A stretch of 64,000 bases of DNA from Alphaproteobacteria bacterium. GTDB taxonomy: Bacteria > Pseudomonadota > Alphaproteobacteria > JAAXGF01. The stretch is taken from positions 32,001-96,000 of the forward strand of contig CAUVXB020000001.1 in NCBI GenBank assembly GCA_963555825.3, given 5' to 3'. The stretch's first letter is position 1; each line of letters opens with the position of its first letter. Below are positions 5,704 through 48,247 of this stretch, in pieces. The position numbers and the translations under genes were made by a program. Below the pieces are notes generated by a model. That model was not told where the DNA came from. It saw only the letters and a list, made by a program, of their open reading frames with translations, and searched no databases.

Positions 5704-6310
5704 GTTCCGGTCCTCCTTGGACACTTCGATTAAGCCAATTCTGTGTCCAAGGAAATCGGGTCCGACTCAGGCGTATGACGTAGTGCACATATTGCGCTAT
5801 TGCTAAAAGGCCTGAAAAGAAACTCCCGATTCTTATAAGTAGGACGGAGTTCAGTACAGCCAAGAATATGAAGAGGATCGTCAGGCTTGGGGAGTCCTGA
5901 ACGGTTTGAATGTAGGCATCGATATCGAACTGACTCTCTGGTCGTAATAGATAACCTGCGATGCCAAACAACGCCGTAAGGTAGATGCCCGACATCCTAT
6001 CGATGCGCTGCGAGTAATGATCGACCTCATCCCGAAGGGCCTGAAATTCTGCGAGATGAATTTGGACTTCTCTTTCGGAATCCATCGCCTAAATCTGCAA
6101 ATGAGTGCGCCCGCCTTCAAAGTGACGGCGACAATTTCTGGCGTCCATTCAAAACTCAACCTAAACCCGCGATAAGCCCGTGTCTGCCTTATTTCATCCT
6201 GCGGTTACAGATCGGGCGCCCACTGGCAAGTACTGGCTAGGTCCAGCGTTACCCCTTGTACGACGATATTGATAACGCACGAAAAGTCCGAAATTCGCCT
6301 TCGCCGATCG

Positions 6311-7051
6311 TTACCCTTTCCAAAAATTGTTTCTAGACAGTCTCGGTTCTACCAGCGTTTGCCCATCATTGACCACGCTCATTACACCGCCTCCGAGTTT
6401 CAAGTCTATCATCAGCATGAGTGCGGGCAGGTCCGCATATTGGATAAATGCGCCGTGTCGCGCCTTTTCCGGTGTCTGTCCAAGGGCGCCGTGAAGAGCA
6501 ACGCCCCAATTCTCGCTGAACCCGCTGCTTGAGTTCGAGCCTCGGGAAACCGGCGTAATCCGCACATACTGGAATCCCTTCAGGACCGCGACGCGACGAT
6601 TCATCGAGTGACTTAGGACCTTGCCCGCAATATCCTCTGTCGGAAATGCCCTTCGATAGGCATTACGGTAGCGAGTATAGCCCACATGGACCCATACCTG
6701 CATTCGGCGGTGGAGGACTGCAGACCCCTCCATTTCCCAGATAGGCAAGCTGGCGTCAATGGGCGGCGGCTCCTTGGTCCGAACCAGGAACGCCTTGTTG
6801 GGCGTGCCCTTCGCCAAAATTTTCACAATTTCGCCGATGTAGATCGTGATCGATTCCTCATTGAGAGCGGCGATCGGCACATGCACGCATTCCGGCAAAA
6901 CGTAGCGCCGGAACGCAATATCTCGGGCGACATGATCAATATCGAACGTCAAATCAATTATGGGGGGAGTGCGCGGGAACTGAGATATCGGCGCCGTCTG
7001 AAATTGTAGGGCGGTCGTGACGATTCGGCGAGGGTGCCGACAACGGCTCAC
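6311..7051 (-). CDS. Hypothetical protein (start uncertain)
   Basis: 246-codon ORF with protein-like composition in lower-GC DNA; no family recognised. Confidence 0.5.
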   Translation of the reverse strand: MSRCRHPRRIVTTALQFQTAPISQFPRTPPIIDLTFDIDHVARDIAFRRYVLPECVHVPIAALNEESITIYIGEIVKILAKGTPNKAFLVRTKEPPPIDASLPIWEMEGSAVLHRRMQVWVHVGYTRYRNAYRRAFPTEDIAGKVLSHSMNRRVAVLKGFQYVRITPVSRGSNSSSGFSENWGVALHGALGQTPEKARHGAFIQYADLPALMLMIDLKLGGGVMSVVNDGQTLVEPRLSRNNFWKG

Positions 7052-7054
7052 GTT

Positions 7055-7234
7055 TCACCATTGCAGCATGCGGTCGTTGGGGATGTCGCTGAACAGCAGC
7101 GTCCGCGTGTCGGCGAACCAGACCGGCCCTTCGGCCCAGCGCATGCCGGTGTAGAGCGTTTCGAGCGTCGCGCCCGGCACCAGCAGTTCGGCGAAGCGCT
7201 CATCGATGATCTCGACGGTGTTGTCCTGTGCCAC
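7055..7234 (-). pseudogene. N-terminal fragment of an SMP-30/gluconolactonase family protein
   Basis: VAQDNTVEIIDERFAELL..LETLYTGMRWAEGPVWF..LLFSDIPNDRMLQW*; only 59 aa of a ~300-aa family, ending at the accessory-region boundary. Confidence 0.8.
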
Positions 7235-19942: not shown

Positions 19943-20018
19943 GGGCGCGTAGCTCAGTCGGTAGAGCATCTGACTTTTAATCAGAGGGTCCCAGGTTCAA
20001 TCCCTGGCGCGCCCACCA
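19943..20018 (+). tRNA. tRNA-Lys (UUU), copy 1
   Basis: 76-nt cloverleaf: GGGCGCG acceptor stem, CTTTTAA anticodon loop, encoded CCA. Confidence 0.97.
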
Positions 20019-25813: not shown

Positions 25814-25889
25814 GGGCGCGTAGCTCAGTCGGCAGAGCATCTGACTTTTAATCAGAGGGTCCCGGGTTCGATCCCCGGCGCGCCCACCA
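25814..25889 (+). tRNA. tRNA-Lys (UUU), copy 2
   Basis: Complete 76-nt cloverleaf with CCA; four differences from copy 1. Confidence 0.96.
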
Positions 25890-27004: not shown

Positions 27005-28456
27005 CGGCGATGTCCCTATCTCTGTTGAAATTCGTGGGGCAGGCGTCGCTGGTTGATGATGCTATGCTGCCTTCATGATGGTTTCAATGGCACTGTCGGC
27101 CTGAGCCTTTCTCAAGTGTTCCTGGAGAGCATTTCGGAGGATGGGCAGCTGACGATAGGCCTTGAGGCGACGGAAGGTTTTCTGGGCCTCCAGCAGGCCG
27201 GCGGCGGTCCATCTGAGCGCCATCTCGGCGTGTCTCCAGCGTTTGACGTTGCGGGTGACCTGGCGCACCGTGCCGAGCGCGTTCTCGACGATGTTGGTGC
27301 AGGCGAGCGAGCGCCGGAGTTCGTGCGGCAGGCCGAGGCGGATGACGGTGAGGATCTCGTCCAGCCCCTCCAGGATGCTGCCCGAGACGCCCGGTTCCTC
27401 ATGCTCCAGACGCCGGGCCAGGTTGCGCAGCAGCCGTTCGGCCTTGTCTGCGTCGTCCTGGTCCCAGGCCTGACGGAGCGCCTTCTTGACGCTCGCATGC
27501 AAATGCAGGGGCAGGCGCTCGATGATGTTACGGCCCTTGTGGACCTGGCAGCGCTGGATGGCGGCGGCCACACCGAAGGTGTTGCGGATCGCTTTGCTGA
27601 GCGCCTTCGCGCCATCGACGATGAACAGCCGGGGCAGCGTCGGATCGAGCCCCCTGGCGAGGAGATTGTCGAGCAAGGCCTGGACGACGACAGTGTTCTC
27701 CGTCGCCCCCTCGACCACGGCCAGGACATGCTTGTCGCCGTTGCCATCGACGCCGATCGCCGCCACCAAGACATGGTCGCCGACATGCAGACCGTCGATC
27801 TGGATGACCAGCAGGTCGAGCTCCGAGAGGTCCGAGGCGAGCCAGGCCTTCATCTTCTTGCGCGACAGCGCCACAAAGCGCCGGGAAACGGCCGACTTCG
27901 AGGTGCCGTCGCCACGCGCTTTCGCCAGGTCGCCCTCGGGCAGACGGACCGCGCGGTGGTACTTGCGGGTCGACACGTTCAGGACCATCAGGTTGAGCGC
28001 CCACTCGAGCAACAGGTTGCCGTCGCGCAGCACCTGCCAGCTCTCCAAACCCACCTCCTTGCCAGCATGGTCGCGAACCCGTGGCCGCTGCACTTTCACG
28101 CGGCCGCCGTGGTAGCCGATCTCGCTCTGCGTATGGCCCCAGCGATAACCCCGACGGTTCCCATGGCGACGATGTCGGGCCCCGCACACGGTCGTGGCGT
28201 CCTCCTCCATCATCTCGGCCAAGGCCTCGACCCCGGCCAGGAGACAGAACCGATCCACGCTGAGACGGACTGCGTCCATCGCGTCTGCCAGCGGCGGCAT
28301 AGGAAACGAGGTGGCAAGGGCTTTCGGGCTACTGGAACTACGGATATTCTTTCCCATGGTGTCGTTCTCCCTCTTGGGTTTGCAGCACCCGGAGCCTAAC
28401 GGCTCCAGGAGAGCGACACCTACCTCAACTTTTCAACATCGACCGGGACATCTCCG
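27005..28456 (-). mobile_element. IS256 family insertion sequence
   Basis: IR CGGCGATGTCCCTATCTCTGTTGAAA / TTTCAACATCGACCGGGACATCTCCG; imperfect 8-bp flanks TATTATT(T/C). Confidence 0.88.
27062..28357 (-). CDS. IS256 (mutator-type) transposase
   Basis: VSTRKY, SKSAVSR, IQIDG, IVDGAKAL, QRCQVHK, TNIVEN. Confidence 0.93.
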   Translation of the reverse strand: MGKNIRSSSSPKALATSFPMPPLADAMDAVRLSVDRFCLLAGVEALAEMMEEDATTVCGARHRRHGNRRGYRWGHTQSEIGYHGGRVKVQRPRVRDHAGKEVGLESWQVLRDGNLLLEWALNLMVLNVSTRKYHRAVRLPEGDLAKARGDGTSKSAVSRRFVALSRKKMKAWLASDLSELDLLVIQIDGLHVGDHVLVAAIGVDGNGDKHVLAVVEGATENTVVVQALLDNLLARGLDPTLPRLFIVDGAKALSKAIRNTFGVAAAIQRCQVHKGRNIIERLPLHLHASVKKALRQAWDQDDADKAERLLRNLARRLEHEEPGVSGSILEGLDEILTVIRLGLPHELRRSLACTNIVENALGTVRQVTRNVKRWRHAEMALRWTAAGLLEAQKTFRRLKAYRQLPILRNALQEHLRKAQADSAIETIMKAA

Positions 28457-28470
28457 TATTATTCTTTTAA

Positions 28471-28703
28471 CCGATATTTCCCAGATAGCATTCGTATCGG
28501 AGCAAATCGTAGGCGAACCCGAACACCGATGGAAGGAATTTCGCTCTGCGGTCATTCGGCAGCCCCGATTTGATGATTTGGCCGTTGTTGGAAGCCCATT
28601 TGGCCAAATTTGTCGTCATCCAGACACACCTCTCCTGTCTTTTCCACCTTGCCGTCAATTTCCTCGGCCTACGCCGGGACGGGGCTTCGGCGTAGATCAT
28701 CAA
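28471..28703 (-). mobile_element. Old IS1380 3'-end remnant (continues at 45202-45230)
   Basis: Collinear with the end of the intact IS1380 at 38539-38770 (IR CCGA(T/C)ATT(T/C)CCCAG; DDLRRSPVPA*). Confidence 0.8.
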
Positions 28704-28884
28704 CCCGCATTTCCCAAGTATCGTCGATATTCAGTGCGGCGAGAAGGCGATTCTGCTATAAGAATCATGAAGTTGTAGCATACATGGAGCGGCGGATATG
28801 GCACACCCGATGGGTGAATCGAAACCGGGGTGCCTTCGGGTCGTTTTTGACCGTCGATTGAAGCTTGAATTCCACGGTTCCAAG
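28704..28884 (+). mobile_element. IS1380 left end with transposase N-terminal stub
   Basis: IR CCCGCATTTCCCAAG; MAHPMGESKPGCLRVVFDRRLKLEFHGSK is cut by IS21. Confidence 0.85.
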
Positions 28885-29002
28885 TGAGAACGGCAGAGCA
28901 ATAATCCCCCACTGAAGCGGCCGGTCGATCCGGCTGCGGCGGACCAAAATGGGACCGCGTATAGCCTTCTGTCAGGGTTGCTCTGACTGGAAGGCGGGGG
29001 GG

Positions 29003-30502
29003 ATGTATCGGGTGGAGTTGTACGCACGGGTTCGGCGGGCGTGTCATGTCGAGGGGATGAGCACCCGCGAGGCCTCGCGGGTGTTTGGTGTAGACCGCAA
29101 GACGGTCCGTAAGATGCTGTCGTTCTCGGTGCCGCCAGGGTATCGCCGAAGCGCGCCGCCGAGGCGGCCAAAGCTGGGTCCGTTCACGGGAATCATCGAT
29201 CGGATCTTGGAAGACGATCGGACCAGCCACCGCAAGCAACGGCACACTGCGAAGCGCATCTTCGACCGCCTCCGGGACGAGTACGGTTTCACGGGCGGCT
29301 ACACCATCGTGAAGGACTACGTTCGTGAGCAGGGGCTTCGGTCGCGTGAGGTGTTCGTGCCACTCTCCCATTCCCCCGGTCACGCCCAGGCGGACTTCGG
29401 CGAAGCGATGGCGGTGATCGGCGGCGCGTTACGGAAGATCCACTTCCTTGCCTTCGACCTTCCCCACAGTGATGGTTGCTTTGTTGCGGCCTATCCGGCG
29501 GAGACGACCGAAGCATTCTGCGATGGCCACAACGCGGCGTTTGCCTTCTTCGGCGGCGTCCCCCGATCCATCCTGTACGACAACACCAAGCTGGCGGTTG
29601 CCCGGATCCTGGGCGATGGGAAGCGGCAGCGAACGCGCGTCTTCACGGAGCTTCAGTCCCACTATCTGTTCGAGGACAGGTTCGGCCGGCCGGGCAAGGG
29701 CAACGACAAGGGCAAGGTCGAGGGACTGGTCGGCTTCATCCGGCGGAACTTCCTGGTCCCCGTCCCGCGTGCCGAGAGCTTCGCGGCCCTCAACGATGCT
29801 CTCGCCGAACAGTGCCGCCGGCGCCAGGCGGCGCGGCTGCGGGGCCACAAGGAGACCATCGGCGAGCGTCTCGAGCGGGATCGTCAAGTTCTCTTGCCAT
29901 TGCCGCCTGCTCCCTATGATGCCTGCGATAAGCGCCCTGGACGGGCGAGTTCGCTGTCGCTGGTGCGTTACCGCAGCAACGACTATTCCGTGCCCGTGGC
30001 CTACGGCCACCGTGAGGTGCTCATCCGGGGCTACGTCGATGAGGTGGTGATCAGCTGCGGGGCCGAGGTGATCGCCCGGCACCGCCGGTCCTACGACAGC
30101 GAGGACCTGATCTTCGACCCGCTGCATTACCTGCCCTTGATCGAGCAGAAGATCGGCGCCCTCGACCAGGCCGCGCCATTGGCGGGCTGGGACCTGCCCG
30201 AGGCCTTCATCACTCTGCGGCGGCTCCTCGAAGCTCGTATGGGCAAGGCAGGCAAGCGCGAGTACGTCCAGGTGCTCCGTCTACTGGAGACCTTCCGGCT
30301 CGAGGAGGTCGAGGGTGCGGTCGGCGACGCCCTGCGGCTCGGCGCAATCGGCTTTGATGCGGTGAAGCACCTGGTACTGTGCCGCATCGAGCGGCGGCCG
30401 CCCAGGCTCAACCTCGACGTCTATCCGTATCTGCCGCGCGCCCGGGTCGCGATGACGTCCGCCAAGTCGTACATGAGCCTGCTGTCGGGGCTCGGCGCAT
30501 GA
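29003..30502 (+). CDS. istA: IS21 transposase
   Basis: HAQADFG, YDNTK, GNDKGKVEG, NDYSVP. Confidence 0.95.
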   Translation: MYRVELYARVRRACHVEGMSTREASRVFGVDRKTVRKMLSFSVPPGYRRSAPPRRPKLGPFTGIIDRILEDDRTSHRKQRHTAKRIFDRLRDEYGFTGGYTIVKDYVREQGLRSREVFVPLSHSPGHAQADFGEAMAVIGGALRKIHFLAFDLPHSDGCFVAAYPAETTEAFCDGHNAAFAFFGGVPRSILYDNTKLAVARILGDGKRQRTRVFTELQSHYLFEDRFGRPGKGNDKGKVEGLVGFIRRNFLVPVPRAESFAALNDALAEQCRRRQAARLRGHKETIGERLERDRQVLLPLPPAPYDACDKRPGRASSLSLVRYRSNDYSVPVAYGHREVLIRGYVDEVVISCGAEVIARHRRSYDSEDLIFDPLHYLPLIEQKIGALDQAAPLAGWDLPEAFITLRRLLEARMGKAGKREYVQVLRLLETFRLEEVEGAVGDALRLGAIGFDAVKHLVLCRIERRPPRLNLDVYPYLPRARVAMTSAKSYMSLLSGLGA

Positions 30503-31263
30503 CCGACACACCGCAAGTGCTGCTCGCCCACCACCTCAAGACGCTGAAGCTGCCGACCTTCCTGCGCGAGTACGACAAGATCGCCCGGCAGTGCGCCTCG
30601 GAAGGCGTCGATCACGTCCGCTACCTGTTGAGACTCGCCGAGCTCGAGCTGATCGACCGCGAGCGCCGCATGGTCGAGCGGCGCATCAAGGCGGCGCGCT
30701 TCCCCGTGGTCAAGAGCCTCGACAGCTTCGACTTCAAGGTCATCCCCTCGCTCAACAAGGCGCTGGTCCTGGAGCTGGCCCGCTGCGAGTACATCGAGCG
30801 CCGCGAGAACCTCATCGCGCTCGGCAACAGTGGGACCGGCAAGACCCACATCGCCCTCGGTCTCGGCCTGGCGGCCTGCCAGAAGGGCCTCTCGGTCGGC
30901 TTCATCACCGCCGCCGCGCTGGTCCACGAACTCATCGAGGCCCGCGATGACAAGCAGCTGCTGAGGTTCCAGAAGAAGCTCGCCACCTACAAGCTTCTGA
31001 TCGTCGACGAACTCGGCTTCGTGCCGCTGTCGAAGACCGGCGCCGAGCTGTTGTTCGAGGTGTTCAGCCAACGCTACGAGCGGGGCTCGACCCTGGTCAC
31101 CACCAATCTGCCCTTCGACGAATGGACCGAGGTGTTCGGCTCCGAGCGCCTCACCGGCGCGCTCCTCGATCGCCTCACCCACCACGTCAACATCCTCGAG
31201 ATGAACGGTGACAGCTACAGGCTCAACCAGAGCCGCAGGCGTCAAACCCCGACTGCTAACTGA
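30499..31263 (+). CDS. istB: IS21 helper AAA+ ATPase
   Basis: GNSGTGKTH, LIVDELG, LLDRLTHH, GDSYRL. Confidence 0.95.
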   Translation: MTDTPQVLLAHHLKTLKLPTFLREYDKIARQCASEGVDHVRYLLRLAELELIDRERRMVERRIKAARFPVVKSLDSFDFKVIPSLNKALVLELARCEYIERRENLIALGNSGTGKTHIALGLGLAACQKGLSVGFITAAALVHELIEARDDKQLLRFQKKLATYKLLIVDELGFVPLSKTGAELLFEVFSQRYERGSTLVTTNLPFDEWTEVFGSERLTGALLDRLTHHVNILEMNGDSYRLNQSRRRQTPTAN

Positions 31264-33743: not shown

Positions 33744-36700
33744 TCACGAAACCGGACATTCCGCCGCCGGCCGTTTTTGAAGGACAACGTTGGTCGTCAC
33801 CAATTCGGGCTGATCGTCGCCGGCCAGTTCCGTAAGACCTATCTTGATGTTTAGCGGGTTGGCGCACCAAGCAGTAACAAACGCATCCTCGGCAGCGCCG
33901 CCGCTGCCTTTGGCGAGATTGAGAACGACCATGCCAGGTTGGCTGCTCCAGTCGGCGACAACATGGACGGGTATCTTGTCGTGTTCTTCGATCGTGGCGC
34001 TGAAGGCCTCCTCCACGCGGTTGAACTTGGGATAGGCGCGGCCAAGCCTGACTGGCGCCCGCAGTACGACGGGCGCGGCAAAGCCATCGATCTGATCGGT
34101 TGCGATCTGAAACTTGGCTTGGTTCGCCGCAGAATAGAAGACAACCGTCTCAGGCGCCCAAGAGAAGTACCGTCGGCCGTCGCGACTCAGCTGGTAGGAA
34201 ACCCCGACACGCAAGGCGGCGCCGTCGAATTCCGCCGCGTCGAGGTCGGTGGGCAGTGTGACTAGTGTCGCGGCCTCGAACCATTGCCCAAGAAGCCGAT
34301 TTGCGATGTCCATCTCCACCTCTGGCAGCATCTCGCCTGTGGTGGTGGTGAGTTCGACGGCGATTTTCTCGTCGCGCGCGGCCGCCGGCATCGGCGTGGC
34401 CAACTCGACCCCGCAATTTTGCCATCGCGATATTGACGAAACGGGGCAAATGAGGGCGCAAGGCGATCGCATCGGTCGCCTCGGGTGAACCGGCGCAGGG
34501 CTGCCCGTCTACGGTGTCAACGATCTCGATCGGATACCTGCCCGGTCCGAAACTCGTCCAAACGATCATCTCGGCCGGAGCCACACGGTCGGGCGTACGC
34601 GGCAGACTGTTCATGTCGAAGGTGACGGCAAGGCCGCGCATGTCTGGAAGCACCCGGAGTCCTTCGTGGCGCTTGCCGCGTAGATAGACCTCTGAACCGC
34701 GCCACAAATTTCGTCCCTTGATGAGGAATTCAATTCGGCCTGCGCAAGCGGAAACCGGATTTGGAATGACCTCGGTGATCGTTGTCGACTCGAAGCCCGA
34801 AGGCAAGAGCCCGTCAGCGATGAAACCGGTCAACGTCGCCGTTGCGCGCTGCTGCGGCCTGAGGCGCAACGAAATCTGCCGTCCACCATCCGGTTGCATG
34901 TTGTTGAGAATGCCCGTCCCTTGATGCCAGTTTCCGGCCCAAGCGGTGCGTATTTTCAACAGCATTTCTGGCCACCAGCCTGGCACCGAGACATCGGCAT
35001 AGACGGGGTGGTTGGCAGAGATTTGGCGATAGACAAGCTGGTTCTCCTCGGGTTCCAAGATCGCCTTGGGCCCGAACACGTAACCAAATCGCGCCGTGGA
35101 GTCGGCGTCCTGCGTCAAACTCTGCCGATCGGTGTAGCCGATCACCAGGGGGGTACGCTCGATGGCTTCGGCGAGTCCGACGGCGGTGCGCGACGCCGCC
35201 GCACCGGCATTGATGCCGAGACCTTGGGTCGGCAGTGTCGCCGCCAAGGAAAAGGCGAGCTGCATGGAATTCGCGGCGCTAGCCAGCGTCGACAATCGCT
35301 GGACCCGCTCGGTCGGCTGGGCCTGATAAGTATAGGGTTGCCCCCGCCAGCGGCATTCCGTGCCGTTGTGCCAAACTACGGTATCTACGAATGAACTCGG
35401 AACTGGAAGGGCTTCGATTTCCTTCCAGCAGCCAGGTGCCTGGACCCCAGCAGTCTGTGGTGCCTGATCCACAGCGGTTGAGGTGCCTTGTTCGCGAAGA
35501 TCTCGCGCCCCGTAGGCCGCTTTGGAAAGCTGCGCCGCGAGCGCCCTTAAGTCATGCGATAATTCGATTTCGCCGGCGCCGCCGTCCCGCAGCAGCTCTG
35601 ATCGATAAGAGGAAAGGAAGACCTCAATCGCGCTAAGTGACGGAAAAGTTTCAATTAGATTTTTCGACAGCGCGCCCGGATCATAGGTGATTGTTTCGCC
35701 GCTGTCGTTTTTCGCACATTTGTCACCCAACTCACGTGACATTGCCGACGCTTCCAACGCTTCGGCGATACATGGATTGTCAATTGCCTCGCGTACGATG
35801 TCTTGGTGGCCGGGGTACGTGAACAGGATCAGGTCATTCAAGCCCTTTTGTGTGTATACGGGATGTTCGAGCGGCACGTAGTCCATCAATTCATTTTGCA
35901 GCATTACCGTCTGCAATCGTTCCCATTCGACGGGATTGCCGGCGCTCTGCTCCTCGACGCCCCGGCGCATGAGGGAGACCAGCCAATCCAGGTAAAGCCG
36001 CGATACCTGGTCGGCGCGGGCTTCGGCGGACGCGATCTCGAGGTCGAGGACGCCGAACTTGTTCTTGACCGCCCCGGGCAGCACGGTCGCGGTGAACTGA
36101 AGGCGATAGAGGGCGTTTCCGTTCGCATCGTGGACATCGTCGAGCCCGACCTCGGTCAAGCGCTGGCGAATGCGGGCACGGTAGGCGTTTAGGTCCTCGA
36201 AATGCTCTTCGGGCGAAGACTCGAGGGACGACGAGCGGGCCCGCGGCCCTTTCCCGGGTTCGGGTGTCAGGCTGGCGACCAGATCGTTGGCCTTCTTCGC
36301 GGCCTCGGCCAGCCGAGTCTCGATGCTTGTGGTGTTGGGGTCGGTTATCGCCGTCGGCGTGCCCATATTCGCATTGGTCGGATTTAATGCAGCGTTCGAC
36401 GGATCGGTCTGCCGCAGCTTGTTGAGCTCGTCGATTTCGTTCTGGAGCTTGATCAGCTCGATTTCGGCGCGCGCGGATTCGATGTCCTCGCGGCGCGCGA
36501 AATCACGGCCGATTGCCGGGTTGAACGAGATACCCAGCTGCCCGGCAAACGCCTCGATCACGGAAAGATCCCGCCTGATCTGAGGCTCGAAGGTCTGCGA
36601 GACGCTTTCCTGGAGCATGAATTCGAGGTGGCGTACTTCACGCAGGCGATCGTTGATCAGCGTCTCGCGGGAAATCACTTGAGGATCGCCTACCAGAATT

Positions 36701-36846
36701 GCGGCCGCGGTCTGGGCCGATTTCTCGTCGACTTTGCCGATCGAAAAATCGGCGTAAGGGTTGTCTTCGAATACCGAGCAGGCGGTCAGCGCCACCATGG
36801 TCGCCGCGAGCAGGACGCGCCGGGCGGAATGTCCGATTGATGTCAT
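33744..36846 (-). CDS. Large (~1030 aa) lipoprotein of unknown function, one frameshift near 34420
   Basis: Lipobox ALTA-C after a signal peptide; coiled coil; IPT/TIG-like segment ITEVIPNPV..FLIKGRNL; the C-terminus continues in ORF 33744-34472; RBS GAGGGGAG. Confidence 0.7.
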
Positions 36847-37307
36847 TGTCCGTCTCCCCTCGTTAGGCAGCGTTCCCGGGCACAACGATCCTACCCGAGA
36901 GCGCTCCAATGTGTCCCAATTCGGCTGGTCATCGGTCCATCGCGGTCAGACGCGCTTCAAAATTGAGACGTCGAGGAGTTCGAGGACCTTGTTGATATCG
37001 ATCGCATAGGTCCAGTCTTCCTGCATGCGTCCCGTTCGAAGCTGTTCCTTCCATCCGCCCCAGAGCAAGGCGACGGGTCGGAAGGTCCCATCGTCCATTA
37101 CGATGAGTTTACCGCTGTCGCCATGATCGCTAAACTGTTCGTCGTTTTCCTCGTCACCGATTATGAGGTAGTCGGTGTACTTTCTCTCGTCGTCGAAATC
37201 CCACTCAGAATCGTACCAGGAATACGCGAATGCAGCGATGTGAGCTGGTCCCAGAAAATCGGACAGGGAGCTAAGGTGTATTCCACCGGCTAATGGAGGA
37301 ATACGGG

Positions 37308-37589
37308 ATGACGGCACGACGACGGTTTACGGCGAAGTTCAAGGCCCGGGTGGCGCTGGAAGCGCTGCGGGGCGACAAGACGATCCAGGAGCTCGCGGCC
37401 AAGCACAAGGTGCATCCGAACCAGGTGAGCACATGGAAGCGCCAGGCGGTGGACGGTCTTGGCGAGGTATTCTCGAACGGCGTGGACCGCGCCCGTCGGG
37501 ATCATGAATCAGAGATCCACGGCCTCCATGCCAAGATCGGTGAGCTGACGGTGGAACGGGATTTTTTGGCCGGCGGGCTCAAGCGATGA
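37308..37589 (+). CDS. IS3 transposase orfA
   Basis: RRRFTAKFKARVALEA..HPNQVSTWK; GATTTTTTG slippery site. Confidence 0.92.
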   Translation: MTARRRFTAKFKARVALEALRGDKTIQELAAKHKVHPNQVSTWKRQAVDGLGEVFSNGVDRARRDHESEIHGLHAKIGELTVERDFLAGGLKR

Positions 37590-38515
37590 GCCGGGGGGTG
37601 CGCAAGGCGATGATCAGGCGTGACGCTGCCGACCTGAGCTTGGGCCGTCAATGCCGCCTGCTTTCGATCAGCCGGTCCGCGTTCTATTACGCGCCGAAGG
37701 GCGAGAGCCCGGAGAACCTGGCGCTGATGCGCCGCATCGACGGGTTGTTCATGAAGCATCCGTTTTACGGCAGCCGTCAGATGGTCCGCCAGTTGCGGCG
37801 CGAGGGGATCGCGGTGGGCCGTCATCGGGTGCAGCGCTTGATGCGGCTGATGGGCCTCGAGGCGATCTATCAGGCGCCGAGAACCAGCACGCCGCACCCG
37901 GCGCACCGGGTTTATCCCTATCTGCTCAAGGGGTTGGCGATCGAGCGGCCCAATCGGGTCTGGTGCGCCGACATCACCTACATCCCCGTCCAGCACGGCT
38001 TCCTGTACTTGGTCGCGATCATGGACTGGGCGACCCGCCACGTTCTGTCCTGGCGGTTGTCGAACACCATGGACGCCTCTTTCTGCGTCGAGGCGCTGAA
38101 CGACGCGCTGGCCCGATACGCCACGCCGGAGATCTTCAACACCGACCAGGGCAGCCAGTTCACCAGCCTCGACTTTACCGGTGTCCTCAGGGACGTGGGT
38201 GTCGCGATCTCAATGGACGGCCGGGGCCGCTGCATGGACAACATCTTCATCGAGCGCCTCTGGCGGTCGCTCAAATACGAGGCGGTCTACCTCCACGAGC
38301 TGACCGACGGTTTTGCGGCCGAACGGGTCATCGGCGAGTGGATCGGCTTCTACAACACAGAGCGGCCCCATTCGTCCCTCGACGGTCAAACGCCGGCGGA
38401 AGCCTACGGCGCCGGGCAGCCTGTGGATATGATGGATAAGTCTGACGGCTTACCCACATCCCCACAGGCTCAACAGCAACAAAAGGATGTGATAAACAGG
38501 ATTTTGGCAGCATGA
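37586..38515 (+). CDS. IS3 transposase orfB
   Basis: WCADITY, NTDQGSQF, DNIFIERLWRSLKYE. Confidence 0.93.
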   Translation: MSRGVRKAMIRRDAADLSLGRQCRLLSISRSAFYYAPKGESPENLALMRRIDGLFMKHPFYGSRQMVRQLRREGIAVGRHRVQRLMRLMGLEAIYQAPRTSTPHPAHRVYPYLLKGLAIERPNRVWCADITYIPVQHGFLYLVAIMDWATRHVLSWRLSNTMDASFCVEALNDALARYATPEIFNTDQGSQFTSLDFTGVLRDVGVAISMDGRGRCMDNIFIERLWRSLKYEAVYLHELTDGFAAERVIGEWIGFYNTERPHSSLDGQTPAEAYGAGQPVDMMDKSDGLPTSPQAQQQQKDVINRILAA

Positions 38516-38538
38516 TCAGACAGCAGAATACACCTTAA

Positions 38539-40180
38539 CCGACATTCCCCAGATGATATCCAAATTCGCGGAAATCGTACCACGGCCCCAACTCCAAGGG
38601 AACTCTGTTCCCATTGCAGCCATCCGATGACATGATTTTGGTAATCGGCCAGCGCGTGGAAGGCCATTTGGTCGTTTCTCTTGCCATCCAGACACACCTC
38701 TCGTGTCGCAATCTCCTTGCCGTCGATTCCCTCGGCCTACGCCGGAGCGGGTCTTCGTCGTAGATCATCAATCAGGCTCAAGATTTTCTGGAACAAGCTT
38801 CTGGTGACTGCAACCTCGGCCAATTGAAATGTGACGTACCGGCCATGGCTGACAACTTTCGCACCGATCTTGACCAGCTTCTCCCTCAGCGTCGTCAGCG
38901 ACCATTGCTCCACGGCATCGGGCAACGCCAGGGTACGCATGAAGTTGCCGAGGTTATAGGCGAGTGCATGCAGCTGGAGCCGGACGGCATTGTTGCGTAA
39001 CGAACGGCATGACAGCCGCGTCCACTTGATGGCGTTCTTGCCTTCCTTGATCCATTGCTCGGCAGTGCCGCGCTGATTGTAGAACGCAACAACCCGCTCG
39101 GCAGGACGGCTCAGGTTGGTGACGATGAAGCCGACGCGGGGATACAGTTCCCCTGAGTGCCACTCCACCTTGGCGACGACCCGGCGGGGCTTCGTCCAGC
39201 TACCGGCCCGATAGCTGAAGTTCGCGTAATACCGACGAACTTCCTTCGGCGGCCGACCGACGGGGCGCTTGAGCAGGTGCGCGATGCTGTCGTGCAGCAC
39301 CTTGTTGGCCGGAAGCCGGATGGCGTACTTGAAGCCTTCCGCTTCCAGAAACTCATAAACCTCGGGCGAGGCGAAGGCGGCGTCACCACGGAAATAACGC
39401 CGGAGTGTCTTGTTCCGGTATCGAGCGACCACCGGGTCCAACACATCGCGCCATTCATGGGCGCTGTGCACGTTGCCCGGACGCAGGGCGCAACGCTCCA
39501 GATCGCCGAACTGGTTGAACACGAACAGCGGGTGATAGCACGTGCAGCCGAAGTGACCGTTGTAGGCCGTGCCCTCCTGGTCACCGTAGGTCGGGCTGAC
39601 GGAGCTGTCCATGTCGAGCACGATAATCTTCGGCGGCTTGCGCTCGTTAACCTGGTCGATCCAGATGCCCAAAAGGTCAGCGAGCGCGGCGAGGTTGTCA
39701 TTGGTGGCGAGTAACTCCGTCTCGAACCGGCCCATCTGGCTGGTCGATGCGCCGCCGCGCTCGACAGCCCTGCCGCCGACGATCCACCGCATCGCAGGAT
39801 CGCGCCCCAGCCGGTCGGCGTCGTTCACGTCCTCGTACCCGGCGAGACGACCATAGACGGATTGGCGAAGGAGACCGATGATGCCGTGCCAACCGTTCTT
39901 GCCGGTCCGGCTGTCAGCAATAACGTCACCGGCCAGCGTGGTCAGGCCGAGGGCTTCGTCCAGTTCACGATAGGCGAGCAGACCAGCGTCTGACGTGATC
40001 CGCGAACCGTGGAACTCGAACTTCAGTCTTCGGTCGAAAAACGCCCGCAGAAGCCCCCGATCCGACTCACCCTCCAGGTTCCGCATTCGACCCACCCTCC
40101 GTCTGATCTAATCCACTGATTCTTATACAGGAATCAGACGGAAACCGCATCAGATGGATCGGTCACTTGGGGAATGCGGG
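38539..40180 (-). mobile_element. IS1380 family insertion sequence (intact)
   Basis: IR CCGACATTCCCCAG / TTGGGGAATGCGGG; 5-bp TSD CTTAA at 38534-38538 and 40181-40185. Confidence 0.93.
38737..40095 (-). CDS. IS1380 transposase
   Basis: ITSDAGLL, LDMDSS, LRPGNVHSA, RGDAAF, YNQRGTAEQWIKEGK. Confidence 0.95.
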   Translation of the reverse strand: MGRMRNLEGESDRGLLRAFFDRRLKFEFHGSRITSDAGLLAYRELDEALGLTTLAGDVIADSRTGKNGWHGIIGLLRQSVYGRLAGYEDVNDADRLGRDPAMRWIVGGRAVERGGASTSQMGRFETELLATNDNLAALADLLGIWIDQVNERKPPKIIVLDMDSSVSPTYGDQEGTAYNGHFGCTCYHPLFVFNQFGDLERCALRPGNVHSAHEWRDVLDPVVARYRNKTLRRYFRGDAAFASPEVYEFLEAEGFKYAIRLPANKVLHDSIAHLLKRPVGRPPKEVRRYYANFSYRAGSWTKPRRVVAKVEWHSGELYPRVGFIVTNLSRPAERVVAFYNQRGTAEQWIKEGKNAIKWTRLSCRSLRNNAVRLQLHALAYNLGNFMRTLALPDAVEQWSLTTLREKLVKIGAKVVSHGRYVTFQLAEVAVTRSLFQKILSLIDDLRRRPAPA

Positions 40181-41419
40181 CTTAACTACGCTGCCAACCT
40201 GTCCAACAAAGTGGGACCACCTCAATGGTCCCTTTCTGGAACGATCGCGTTCTGCCTACAGCAAACACCTTTTGTCCAATGGGACCCATGGTGTCGAGGT
40301 CGAGTGGGACCGGGTCACCCAGTTCGTGATATTCCACCTCGTCCTGTTCGTTAAGCACCGGCACGCGTGGGTCTATGTCCGATATAGGCCGAGTTGGGTG
40401 CAGCGGTGCGAAGGCACAGTCTACCCGATAATCGTTCTCGGGAAGGTCCACGATGCCCGGAAAGCGGACCTCGTCTGGGAGGTATTCGAATACCTTTGAA
40501 ACTCTACCCAAGGGGACGCCGCCTCTTGTAGGAAACAAGAGCATGTCCCCCACTTCACCCGCGACGTGTTTGTTTGTGATCAGGCCAATATCACCATTGC
40601 TGGCCTGCCCAAAGCAGCCGAGCGTGCCATACCAGCCGGAACGGTGGTAGAGCTGTGCTCCGGGCGTAATGACGTCGCTCCATCCCTTTAATGACTCAAG
40701 AAGACTGATTCTGCCCGGCGTCGACAGTTGTGGAGGTCCAATGATGTCGTCAGGACCGACCACGGGGGCTTTGTAACCGGGTTGAACTCCCGTCACATCG
40801 ACAAGACCGATCTCGAAGAATTCATCCTTTTTTCCTCCCTGAACAATATCTACTGGACAATAGAGACCGTTTGGCCCTTCGAGCCTGTCCTCGATGGCTA
40901 TGCTATCGGGCAACCATTTCTTTGCGATTTTTCGCGGTACGAAGATTATTATACAGGGGTCCCCGTCACCGTTCTTGCGGCCAATGGCGCTACCCAGGTT
41001 CCCGTTAATGGACTGAATATAATCGTTATTAAGTTCTCGAATTATTAGCAATTCCCGAAGATTGTTTGCTTGCGCCATGACTGGTCCTCCCTACCAGCAT
41101 GCAACTGCCGATTCTTGTTGAAATCACCGACTGATGCATTCTTGTGATATGGCCACTTTGTCCGTAACCGTTTGTTGAGATGTCCCCGTTTGCTCGTCCA
41201 GGTCGTGATATGCGTTGGCACAACTTTCTGACGAAGACGGATTGGGTATTAAACGAATCACTCTACAACGATTTCTTTATTTTGTCGCGCCGGTTAGGGG
41301 ATCAAGATTCCATTGCCCTTCCTGCATACCGCACATCGCGTACGAAGTTCGATTTTTGCTGAGCGGCATTTGGCCTCAAGGATTGGTCTCGAAAGCAGCC
41401 CCGCATTACGGCAAGTAAT

Positions 41420-41787
41420 GAGACGATGAACTCGATGCCGATGCGCGCGCCCTCGAGGCCCTTCTCGGCGCGGATGTCGCGCAGCTCGAGCGCCGGGTTT
41501 ACGCCTTCGGCGCCGTACCAGACGCGGATGTCGGGAATGATCGAAGTCTCGCGCGCCTGCTGCACGTCGGGCCGGCGCGTCAAGAGCGTGATCGGCATCT
41601 CGTCGGCGGTCAGCACGGCGCACTGGGAGAAGACGTAGCCCGCGGTGTCGAAGCCGGTCAGGTAGTAGTGGCTCTCCCGGGCGAAGATTTACAGCGCGTC
41701 GAGGTCGCGCATCGCGTGCGCCCGCGCCCGGGCGATGCGTCTCTCGTGCTCCTCGCGCGTGAAAAACAGCACGGGCGTGGCCGCCAT
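41420..41787 (-). pseudogene. N-terminal fragment of an M24 peptidase, with an internal stop
   Basis: FTREEHERRIARAR..LDAL*IFARESHYYLTGFDTAGYVF..RIGIEF; TAA at 41689-41691. Confidence 0.8.
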
Positions 41788-45598: not shown

Positions 45599-48247
45599 TT
45601 GCCTGATCCCGAAAACAAAGCCAGTCCCCTTACCGCAGCCGAGAGCAACCCTGGGGACACCCCCCGAGATGTCCCCAAGGGCGCTCGCGATAACGCCAGC
45701 CCAGAACGCGTCTCGACAGATCGGGCAGCCGCCGCCCGACAATATCCCGCCGTCACCGCCGCAGACGGGGGGAAGCTAACCGCGCCATCGCAGTTTTTCT
45801 TTTTCGCAGGTGTGTTTCTTCTCACCTTGACCACTTTGATGCTTGAAATAATTCAGACACGAATTCTTTCCGTTGTCTCATGGTATTATTTCGCGTTTTT
45901 TATTATCAGCATCGCGATGTTCGGCATGACCGCCGGCGCGGTTTGGGTTTACATGCGGCACGACCGGTTCACGGAAAAGACGCTGTCTCGCGACCTCGTT
46001 TTTTCCACTACGGCGTTTGCGCTGAGTATCGCGTTGTCGCTGGCCGTGCAGATGACCTTGGTACCGACCGTGGTGAGAACCGTGACGTCGATCATCGTAT
46101 GGGTCGAACTGGCGATCTGCATGGCCGTTCCTTTCTTCTTTTCCGGCGTCGCGGTGAGCTTGGCTCTGACTCGCAGCCCCTATTCCATTGGTCGGGTGTA
46201 CGGGTTTGATCTGGCCGGGGCCGCGCTCGGCTGCTTGGGCGCGTTATTGGTGCTCAACATCACCGACGGCCCCTCGGCGATCTTGTGGACGGCGGCGATA
46301 GGCGCGGCGGCTGCCGTTGCCTTCACCAAATCGGGGATCGGCGTTGCGTCTGGTGAAGAGCCCGCGCTGATTTCTGTATTGCGGCGACCGAAGCTGGTAC
46401 TTTGCCTCCTCGCGTTCGTCGCGCTGGGTAACAGCCTGGCCGAGAATGGACTCCGGCCGCTGGCGATCAAAGGACAAATTGCATTGCCGACCGTGGCGAT
46501 CGAATTCGAAGAGTGGAACACGTTCTCACGGATTATCGCGCAGCGAACCGTCAAGAGAGAGCCGCATATGTGGGGTCCCTCGCCGATGATGCCGCAGAAC
46601 AGATGGCTGATCGATCAAAAAAAGATGACCATCGATGGACAGGCCAGCTCGAGGATGTATCGCTTCACGGAAAACGTGGAGGATATGGCGTTTCTGAAAT
46701 ACGACATAACCAACTTGGGCTATTTCCTGCCCGACCGTGAACGGGCAGCGGTGATCGGGGTCGGCGGCGGGCGAGACCTGATGTCGGCCTGGACGTTCGG
46801 CGTCCGCGACATCACCGGCGTCGAGATCAACCCGATCTTCATCAAGCTGTTGACCGGCCTGCCCGAATTCGCCGACTTCGCCGGCCTGAGCAGGCTCGGC
46901 GGAATTACACTCGTCGTTGACGAGGGGCGTAGCTGGTTCGCGCGGACCGACGAGAGCTTCGATGTCATCTTGATGAGCTTGGTCGATACCTGGGCCGCGA
47001 CCAGTGCGGGCGCGTTCTCGCTGAGCGAGAACGGCCTTTACACGTTGGAGGCATGGCGGGTCTTCCTCAATCGGCTGACGCCACGGGGTGTTTTCTCGGT
47101 TAGTCGTCACTTCGCCCCCAGCAACGTCGATGAGGCGGGCCGCTTGGTAAGCCTGGCGACGGCGACTCTGATGGACATGGGTTATACGGCCCCGCAGCGC
47201 CACATTTTTCTCGCCGCCGCGGGCAAAGTGTCTACGTTGCTGGTCTCACGGTCGCCCTATTCGTCGGCGGACCTTAAGGTCCTGGAAGACGTCGCCGATC
47301 GATACCAGTACCAAGTGTTGGTGAGCCCGACGAAGAGGCCGGCCTCGGAGGTGCTGTACAACATCGTCACGGCGCGTGACAAGGCGCAGCTCGAGCGATA
47401 CACCGCCGGCCTCGTGCTCGATCTCACGCCGCCAACCGACGAGCGGCCGTTCTTCTTCAATCAATTGCCGCCACTGCAAGCCCTCAAGGTCTTATTCAGG
47501 TCGCGAGATGCCGTCAGAGGCGAGGGGACGGCAAGCGGTAACCTCGCTGCCACGGTGGTCCTACTGCTATTGTTTCTCGTTTCGACTTGGCTCGTCGCCG
47601 CGACCATCATCATTCCGATCCTCCCGGCCATCGAAGACGTGGGCGCTCGTTTGGTCACCGGAGGCACCGGTTACTTCGTGCTCATCGGCATCGGTTTCAT
47701 GACCGTCGAGATCGGGCTGTTACAACGAATGTCTGTGTTCCTCGGGCCCCCGGTCTATTCGCTCAGCGTCGTCCTCTTCACCTTGATTCTGGTGACCGGC
47801 ATAGGGAGTTTCATCTCGGACAGGCTCCGGCTCGACAGCCCGAAGAAGTTCGCCATCTGGTGCGCCCTGACCGGTGGCTACGTCATCCTACTTCCGTTGT
47901 GGCTGCCGACTCTCCTCCTCGTCTTCGACAGTGCCAACCTTTTCAGCAGGGCGGCCCTCTGCGTCGGCGTGATTGCGCCGGCGGCGGTTCTGATGGGCGC
48001 GGGCTTCCCGACCGGCATACGACTGATCTCCGCCGTCGATCGCGGGCCGACGCCCTGGTTCTGGGCGATCAACGGCGCGACGGGCGTGCTTGCGTCGATC
48101 ATCGCCGTTGCGTGCAGCATTTCCTTCGGCATCGACGTCACCCTGCGCGTCGGCGGTGTTTGCTACCTTCTCTTGTTGCCCGCCGCGCTGACCATCGGAT
48201 TTCGCGGATCAACCGGTGCGTCGGGCCACGCGGTGGCCACAGTCTGA
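45599..48247 (+). CDS. Polytopic membrane protein with a spermidine-synthase-like SAM domain
   Basis: TM bundles flank VIGVGGGRD, GVEINP, DEGRSW, ENGLYTLEA, TDERPFFF; start uncertain. Confidence 0.85.
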   Translation: MPDPENKASPLTAAESNPGDTPRDVPKGARDNASPERVSTDRAAAARQYPAVTAADGGKLTAPSQFFFFAGVFLLTLTTLMLEIIQTRILSVVSWYYFAFFIISIAMFGMTAGAVWVYMRHDRFTEKTLSRDLVFSTTAFALSIALSLAVQMTLVPTVVRTVTSIIVWVELAICMAVPFFFSGVAVSLALTRSPYSIGRVYGFDLAGAALGCLGALLVLNITDGPSAILWTAAIGAAAAVAFTKSGIGVASGEEPALISVLRRPKLVLCLLAFVALGNSLAENGLRPLAIKGQIALPTVAIEFEEWNTFSRIIAQRTVKREPHMWGPSPMMPQNRWLIDQKKMTIDGQASSRMYRFTENVEDMAFLKYDITNLGYFLPDRERAAVIGVGGGRDLMSAWTFGVRDITGVEINPIFIKLLTGLPEFADFAGLSRLGGITLVVDEGRSWFARTDESFDVILMSLVDTWAATSAGAFSLSENGLYTLEAWRVFLNRLTPRGVFSVSRHFAPSNVDEAGRLVSLATATLMDMGYTAPQRHIFLAAAGKVSTLLVSRSPYSSADLKVLEDVADRYQYQVLVSPTKRPASEVLYNIVTARDKAQLERYTAGLVLDLTPPTDERPFFFNQLPPLQALKVLFRSRDAVRGEGTASGNLAATVVLLLLFLVSTWLVAATIIIPILPAIEDVGARLVTGGTGYFVLIGIGFMTVEIGLLQRMSVFLGPPVYSLSVVLFTLILVTGIGSFISDRLRLDSPKKFAIWCALTGGYVILLPLWLPTLLLVFDSANLFSRAALCVGVIAPAAVLMGAGFPTGIRLISAVDRGPTPWFWAINGATGVLASIIAVACSISFGIDVTLRVGGVCYLLLLPAALTIGFRGSTGASGHAVATV

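Follow-up and report, generated by a model that had tools for sequence, protein, structure and literature searches.

A prokaryotic relative of the rice protease NAL1, split by nested insertion sequences in an alphaproteobacterial genome

We analysed a 64,000-nucleotide stretch of an alphaproteobacterial genome (GenBank assembly GCA_963555825.3, contig CAUVXB020000001.1, positions 32,001 to 96,000 of the forward strand; hereafter the window) and found on its minus strand the two parts of a gene for a relative of the plant serine protease NARROW LEAF1 (NAL1), separated by an insertion sequence (IS) that itself carries a second one. In our preferred reading, to which we assign a probability of roughly 85%, the locus holds a gene, acquired horizontally and inactivated in the recent past, for a member of a prokaryotic NAL1 protease family. 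NAL1, also known as SPIKE and GPS, is a major target of rice breeding and among the best-known rice yield genes. Papers published as late as 2024 refer to it as a plant-specific protein (PMC3756344, PMC10970654), and neither 'bacteria' nor 'prokaryot' occurs in the main text of the 2025 PNAS paper on NAL1. Our literature searches, which did not extend to supplements or to two Nature Plants papers on NAL1, found no paper on its prokaryotic homologues. Once the two fragments are read together, the assignment to the family is routine, as both of its domains are already defined in Pfam.

A gene split by nested insertion sequences

The open reading frames (ORFs) of the window include, on the minus strand, one of 298 amino acids (aa) at 40182..41078 and, 2.9 kb downstream and in a compatible frame, one of 123 aa at 36946..37317. 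The DNA that separates the two gene parts (Table 1) consists of an IS3-family element with an IS1380-family element nested inside it. The ORFs of the outer element match the Pfam domains HTH_Tnp_1 (orfA) and rve (orfB) and the NCBIfam model transpos_IS3 (279.7 bits, cut-off 160); the overlap of orfA and orfB, the inverted repeats starting with TG and the 3-bp target-site duplication are likewise those of the IS3 family. The inner element scores 392.4 bits with transpos_IS1380 (cut-off 180) and shows the single DDE transposase, the inverted repeats (an inverted pair at 38543-38556 and 40163-40176) and the short duplication of that family. The duplication, read from the sequence, is the 5-bp TTAAC at 38535-38539 and 40182-40186, in agreement with the 5-bp overlap that both parts of the IS3 element show when aligned to an uninterrupted IS3 copy from another place in the genome. 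The IS3-family element landed in codon 285, between the codons for the Asp and the Ser of the catalytic triad, and the IS1380-family element most likely entered it afterwards. At full length, the composite of the two occurs only once in the genome.

After a script had excised 37241..40227 in silico, a single open frame of 381 codons and a stop remained. The rejoined protein is identical at 380 of 381 positions to P0071 and at 378 of 381 to P0078, both of which are natural, uninterrupted proteins of 381 aa that fall into one 90% cluster with the window's own 298-aa fragment (recorded as P0070). Since the three proteins are identical through the junction (residues 278-292), excision restores the native frame at the junction, not a frame open by chance, and the rejoined gene carries no lesion besides the insertion. 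As it stands, the 5' ORF runs on to 40182 and ends in a 13-residue tail translated from the end of the IS3 element. The preliminary description of this locus, made from the letters of the DNA, had proposed both that removal of an IS3::IS1380 composite flanked by an ATG duplication restores a 381-aa protein in frame and that automated annotation would leave the gene as fragments. The excision and the near-identity to P0071 bear out the first proposal, and the public record, which carries the 298-aa N-terminal part as a protein of its own, bears out the second.

The break lies within the second beta-barrel of the protease domain. Because the insertion parts His171 and Asp220 from Ser326, neither fragment can be an active protease, and the locus is now a pseudogene, i.e. 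a dead accessory gene. We found no sigma-70-like site in the upstream non-coding stretch and no Rfam family at the locus, the only two Rfam matches in the window being tRNAs elsewhere.

Table 1. Features of the split NAL1-family gene and of the elements inserted in it (positions in the window).
Feature	Position	Strand	Description
Whole split NAL1-family gene	41078..36946	-	Interrupted by IS3-family element carrying IS1380-family element
5' gene part	40225..41078	-	Codons 1-284 and 2 bases of codon 285; NAL1_N domain, start of protease domain, His171, Asp220
3' gene part	36946..37240	-	Last base of codon 285 to stop; remaining protease domain, Ser326 in GDSG motif
IS3-family element, whole, with nested element	37241..40224	+	Imperfect terminal inverted repeats located at both ends by script
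IS3, left (main) part	37241..38539	+	Terminal inverted repeat; orfA 37293..37589, orfB 37586..38515
IS3, right-end stub	40182..40224	+	Contains terminal inverted repeat
ATG target-site duplication, left copy	37238..37240	.	3 bp, flanks IS3
ATG target-site duplication, right copy	40225..40227	.	3 bp, flanks IS3
IS1380-family element	38540..40181	-	452-aa DDE transposase 38737..40095; 43 bp from right end of IS3
Upstream non-coding stretch	41079..41657	-	GC 0.57

Assignment to the NAL1 family

The protein is a true member of the NAL1 family and the likeness spans its whole length. In Pfam, NAL1_N (PF25608, cut-off 27) matches the N-terminal fragment with 65.8 bits and the intact P0071 with 65.1 bits, while Nal1_C (PF25819, cut-off 26.1) matches the N-terminal fragment with 41.7 bits, the C-terminal fragment, at the end of the model, with 51 bits and P0071 with 104.9 bits over model positions 7-264 of 268. 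No NCBIfam model matches P0071. In a phmmer search of all PDB sequences, both fragments retrieved nine rice NAL1 sequences and nothing else below an E-value of 0.1: these scored 1.7e-18 to 1.9e-17 with the N-terminal fragment and 5.7e-8 to 1.1e-7 with the C-terminal one, and the next match stood at 0.19 or above. The alignments are colinear with rice NAL1, residues 3-80 of the query corresponding to rice 90-169, residues 125-285 to approximately 186-349 and the C-terminal fragment to approximately 357-444.

The fold tells the same story. For P0071, AlphaFold with an alignment of 57 rows gave a model with a mean predicted local distance difference test score (pLDDT) of 90.9 and a predicted template modelling score (pTM) of 0.90. 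In a Foldseek search of the PDB with this model, ranks 1-34 were all NAL1 chains (E 1.1e-31 to 1.3e-23), with template modelling (TM) scores of 0.74-0.80; identity was 27-28% in alignments of about 400 columns. The alpha-lytic protease group, the next fold in the ranking, followed at E 3.4e-11 and TM 0.44 and covered the protease domain only.

In the intact 381-aa product, these matches place a small N-terminal domain, the counterpart of the ATP-binding one in rice NAL1, ahead of a serine protease domain of the chymotrypsin fold. The same two domains, in the same order, form the core of rice NAL1 as seen in PDB entries 8PMM, 8PMG, 8HAS, 7Y77 and others. In the phmmer alignments, His171, Asp220 and Ser326 align with the rice triad H234/D291/S385. 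Site counts, taken from a 57-row alignment of 51 non-plant and 6 plant rows, showed that the triad is kept in nearly all non-plant rows (His in 50 of 51, Asp in 51 of 51 and Ser in 50 of 51) and in all six plant rows. The N-terminus, read from the translation, has no hydrophobic, signal-like stretch.

The preliminary description had recognized the protein as a bacterial member of the lineage that includes NAL1, with an intact His/Asp/Ser triad, no signal peptide and a resemblance to the plant protein that extends beyond the catalytic motifs, and had called for a comparison of an AlphaFold model with the NAL1 structure. The domain scores, the colinear PDB alignments, the TM scores over the whole length, the triad residues and the N-terminal sequence agree with it on each of these counts. 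Its plant motifs proved close to those of rice NAL1 without being letter-perfect. We encountered neither of the outcomes that it had named as grounds for rejection: the best matches are not generic S1 proteases devoid of the N-terminal domain, and the rejoined frame does not depart from that of intact homologues.

Genomic setting and foreign origin

The gene has a GC content of 0.53 and a GC content at third codon positions (GC3) of 0.57, against a GC3 of 0.92 in the adjacent gene for a GMC oxidoreductase and a GC content of 0.65 in the genome as a whole. It is present in a single copy and, with this query, was not found in any of 40 relatives, of which 12 belong to the same family and 28 to the same class (genome completeness 57-100%). 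Across the phylum, NAL1_N scored above its cut-off in only 2 of the 401 genomes sampled, one of which is the window's own. Thus, on composition and distribution, the gene looks foreign and horizontally acquired, in line with the lower-GC accessory DNA of the preliminary description. Outside the window, the genome has a weak second NAL1_N match (26.5 bits, cut-off 27) in a 172-aa open frame at G000:C1:1985244-1985378 (+).

The genome carries a heavy load of IS elements (counting copies of half length or more, 30 are IS3-like and 59 are IS1380-like), so an insertion into an accessory gene is unsurprising. Several IS1380 copies elsewhere in the genome share at least 99.5% identity, which indicates that this type has been active recently. 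Most of the IS3-like copies are about 88% identical to the copy at the locus and only one reaches 96%. More mobile elements lie at 27062..31263 of the window: an IS256-family transposase gene (27062..28357, -) and the istA (28949..30502) and istB (30379..31263) genes of an IS21 element on the plus strand. The window also has tRNA genes at 19943..20015 and 25814..25886, and the stretch from the second of these (25814) to about position 41650 may be one island.

Directly downstream of the split gene and on the same strand is an ORF of 919 aa (34150..36909, -; GC3 0.69) with a lipoprotein-like N-terminus, in which a hydrophobic stretch ends in Cys. Searches of Pfam, NCBIfam and PADLOC returned no match for it, and its best match in the Atlas (0.81) serves as a lead only. 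A predicted ORF of 882 aa on the plus strand (45599..48247) likewise has no match in Pfam, NCBIfam or PADLOC.

Family size, phylogenetic spread and gene neighbourhoods

A word-index search returned 67 proteins, most of them 375-390 aa in length and the few named ones annotated as hypothetical protein. The best match was the cluster with the window's own fragment. Among the other 66, both Pfam domains were found in 61 proteins, one domain in four and none in one. The family is therefore not 'hidden' in general, as the preliminary description had it: with a single exception, these 66 proteins already carry a PF25608 or PF25819 label. A profile built from 24 members and run against 1.84 billion representative sequences found 1784 proteins at E values of 0.001 or less, 276 at 1e-10 and 116 at 1e-30.

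Analysis of GTDB species genomes confirmed 34 family loci. The bacterial ones belong to Alphaproteobacteria, Gammaproteobacteria, Burkholderiales, Mariprofundaceae, Thermodesulfobacteriota, Myxococcota, Chloroflexota, Spirochaetota, Clostridia, Planctomycetota, Verrucomicrobiia, Acidobacteriota, Aminicenantes, Binatia and Cyanobacteriota. Archaeal members are found in metagenome-assembled genomes (MAGs) of Methanoperedens and Methanothrix (L020 and L034), and NAL1_N also scores above its cut-off in Methanosarcina acetivorans, which served as a control genome. Thus, NAL1 belongs to a rare family that is spread across bacteria and archaea in many phyla. The closest kin of the window's protein are uncharacterized prokaryotic proteins of about 345-390 aa that have NAL1_N followed by Nal1_C and share its length, Pfam domains and invariant residues. 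Identity to it is 99.7% in P0071, 81% in P0002 and 63% in L002, the last from an alphaproteobacterial MAG; these three are intact, whereas the window's copy is split by the IS3::IS1380 composite. In a Chloroflexia MAG (L005:6001-7144) the homologue occupies two overlapping ORFs (6001-6384 and 6320-7144), which suggests a frameshift or a sequencing error.

Neither sequence comparison nor domain content revealed a conserved neighbour of the gene. A tblastn search with the 919-aa downstream ORF found nothing in the 34 related loci; all-against-all clustering of the flanking ORFs recovered only the gene itself and its own antisense shadow ORFs; and among 104 neighbour ORFs at 29 loci, matches to 102 Pfam families were found, none of them in more than three ORFs. 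The idea of an operon partner was therefore dropped.

All 20 long members that were scanned carry both NAL1 domains and four of them carry one further Pfam domain, namely a C-terminal Endonuclease_NS in P0108 and P0111, TIR_2 in P0133 and the metalloprotease domain Astacin in P0090. P0108 comes from an MMETSP transcriptome and P0111 is named 'endonuclease G' by its source. The TIR and endonuclease fusions hint at a role in conflict systems. On that account, the intact protein would be part of an anti-phage or inter-bacterial system and not a regulatory protease, would activate or accompany a toxic effector, and its gene would be carried as dispensable accessory DNA, which fits the rare and patchy distribution over many phyla, the foreign composition, the effector-type domains of these four proteins and the repeated breakage of the gene in its own 90% cluster (see below). 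We nevertheless consider this account unlikely. PADLOC gives no match for P0071, there is no conserved partner, the 25 families listed of the 102 in the neighbourhood include no common defence family, and the transposase domain DDE_Tnp_1 occurs in only two of the 104 neighbour ORFs. With P0071 as the tblastn query, neither the 50,697 phage records nor the 72,556 plasmid records gave a match. Finally, the fused forms are a minority, and one of the four stems from a eukaryote transcriptome.

Conserved residues and inferred mode of action

The structures of rice NAL1 offer a guide to how the intact bacterial protein might work. In rice NAL1, residues 1-88 make up an N-terminal domain, residues 89-172 the ATP-binding domain and residues 184-458 the serine protease domain, whose triad is H234/D291/S385; trimers are held together where the ATP-binding domain touches the protease domain, a cage arises when two of them stack and swap an N-terminal strand with strand 11 (residues 264-271), and the triad adopts its active geometry only in the resulting hexamer (PMC12012508). 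Several of the nucleotide-contacting positions have been kept in the prokaryotic proteins. The equivalent of rice K139 is conserved in all 51 non-plant rows (K50 in the window's protein) and that of D166 in 49 of them (D77). In place of R120, Lys is found in 45 and Arg in two of the 51 rows (K35 in the window's protein), and the equivalents of V140, L151 and V167 are mostly hydrophobic, as they are in the window's protein. The segment that aligns with the NAL1-specific strand 11 is also a strand in the model (residues 195-201).

On the analogy with rice NAL1, we see about even chances that the intact form works in the same manner, i.e. as a cytosolic, nucleotide-binding, self-associating protease that would cut selected proteins, and not as a secreted digestive enzyme. 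Several observations weigh against this and against the preferred reading of the locus in general. Rice NAL1 has four basic phosphate ligands, two of which (R122 and K123) are not conserved and are replaced by Gly and Asp in the window's protein, and the equivalent of the adenine-contacting Q149 is Ile there and Gln in 31 of the 51 non-plant rows. The stacking strand, which lies within rice residues 31-88, has no counterpart: the bacterial protein begins at the equivalent of rice residue 90 and ends near that of residue 449. Since it starts at the ATP-binding domain, it has no strand with which to stack a hexamer, and it is without both plant-specific extensions, the N-terminal one of about 88 aa (rice 1-88) and the C-terminal one of about 130 aa. 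The stacking strand is a trait of the plant protein (PMC12012508) and does not enter into Pfam's definition of the family. For every prokaryotic member, NAL1-like activity, nucleotide binding and an oligomer are predictions only, and a two-copy model of P0071 (alignment A2) scored 0.00, which gives no verdict either way. There is no conserved neighbour gene to name a substrate or a pathway. The substrates of plant NAL1, a TOPLESS-related corepressor and FZP, are plant proteins for which no bacterial counterpart is expected. The window's gene is also unlike that of rice in being bacterial, of foreign composition and broken.

The state of the gene in its closest relatives has to be counted here as well. 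In the window's own 90% cluster (P0001 and P0068-P0081), the protein is full length (381 aa) in only two of the 16 recorded proteins, and this fragmentation may reflect weak selection in the lineage or errors of assembly. The other proteins of the cluster are pieces with breaks near residues 75, 195, 285 and 315. In P0001, residue 315 is followed by a short tail that is out of frame. P0072, like the window's gene, is broken at residue 285; its tail of 33 residues reads an IS3 end and continues, in a different frame, into the downstream gene, as though no more than a short remnant were present at the site.

Relationship to the plant proteins

The profile built from prokaryotic members finds proteins named NARROW LEAF 1 from Rhododendron and Vitis, as well as proteins of ferns, Selaginella, Diphasiastrum and Closterium, at E values of about 1e-55 to 1e-60. 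We built a quick tree of 86 rows, limited to proteins of at least 330 aa with the GDSG and TNxHV motifs (so that seven of the 34 loci and every shorter representative fell outside it), and found all eight labelled plant rows in one clade of 18 rows (support 100, stem 0.91). A more careful maximum-likelihood tree comprised 48 rows, after removal of near-duplicates and of the long branches P0139, P0172, P0126 and P0115. In this tree, eight streptophyte rows form a group with support of 100/100; P0140 is among the named proteins (Diphasiastrum), while P0134 is labelled a streptophyte solely by its position in the clade. The group lies inside a set of 18 rows (97/94), together with Mariprofundaceae, three Thermodesulfobacteriota and Methanoperedens rows, and this set is nested in turn within one of 22 rows (100/100). 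The window's protein is placed in the other set, of 26 rows, beside an alphaproteobacterial and a Chloroflexota MAG (99/97), so by this tree it is not the nearest prokaryotic relative of the plant proteins.

The 48-row tree is unrooted. Unless its root falls on the streptophyte stem, the genes of plants branch from among prokaryotic ones, which points to a gene transfer to the streptophytes. Because the cyanobacterial rows are not near the plants, the tree does not favour a plastid origin. We regard it as probable, if far from certain, that plant NAL1 descends from the prokaryotic family by such a gene transfer. A root on the streptophyte stem, which would make the plants sister to all prokaryotic rows instead of nested among them, would count against it. 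That root would suit a transfer in the opposite direction or none at all, with the family arising in streptophytes, or being ancient in both groups, and the prokaryotic copies coming from a plant gene; the streptophyte stem is indeed the longest inner branch of the tree (0.97) and a possible position of the root. We hold this alternative to be improbable. The prokaryotic members are deeply diverged and come from bacteria and archaea of more than 15 named phylum-level groups, and the named eukaryotic members that we found are all streptophytes, except for one MMETSP transcript elsewhere in the tree. Moreover, the prokaryotic forms represent the minimal two-domain core, to which the plant forms add extensions.

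Returning to a transfer into the streptophyte line, a more far-reaching version of it, which we put forward as a doubtful possibility, is that NAL1 is a domesticated prokaryotic gene that later gained its N-terminal stacking strand and its C-terminal tail, that the prokaryotic core operates in conflict systems and that intact members such as P0071 could serve as minimal models of core activation.

Readings with little in their favour

It is very unlikely that the two fragments still work, be it as a split protein or through loss of the insertion in part of the population. The C-terminal fragment does retain an open frame and IS elements can carry outward promoters. However, the break in the second beta-barrel parts the catalytic Ser from its His and Asp, the C-terminal frame has no start codon downstream of the end of the IS3 element, and no intact homologue is split at this position.

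The suggestion that the protein is a generic S1 or trypsin-like protease that resembles NAL1 in no more than the catalytic motifs is scarcely credible: Trypsin or Trypsin_2 clusters do appear beside the Nal1 labels among its Atlas feature matches and its protease domain also matches alpha-lytic proteases by fold, but NAL1_N lies outside the protease fold, 20 orders of magnitude and a drop in TM from 0.8 to 0.44 separate the NAL1 chains from the next fold, and no PDB sequence other than NAL1 falls below E 0.19. Tested against the NAL1_N match, the Foldseek gap and the phmmer search of the PDB, this reading was not supported. Proteases of the alpha-lytic and streptogrisin type (PDB 2ALP, 5MRR and 2SFA) have in common with the window's family the double barrel of the chymotrypsin fold and the Ser/His/Asp chemistry. 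However, they are secreted proteins of about 200 aa with a pro-region and without NAL1_N, and they share 16-18% identity with the P0071 query at TM scores, normalized to that query, of 0.42-0.44.

Implications

For the genome at hand, the practical consequence is modest: the two fragments are one dead accessory gene, killed by a very active load of IS elements. For the family, the finding means that the catalytic core of NAL1, together with its odd ATP-binding domain, makes up a module of about 380 aa present in both bacteria and archaea, contrary to the 'plant-specific' label. Its small versions, free of extensions, may lend themselves to structural study of nucleotide binding and of the activation of the triad, and for evolutionary studies the family is a candidate case of gene transfer into the lineage ancestral to land plants. 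A prokaryotic NAL1 family and its likely transfer into plants, both inferred computationally, are of moderate interest.

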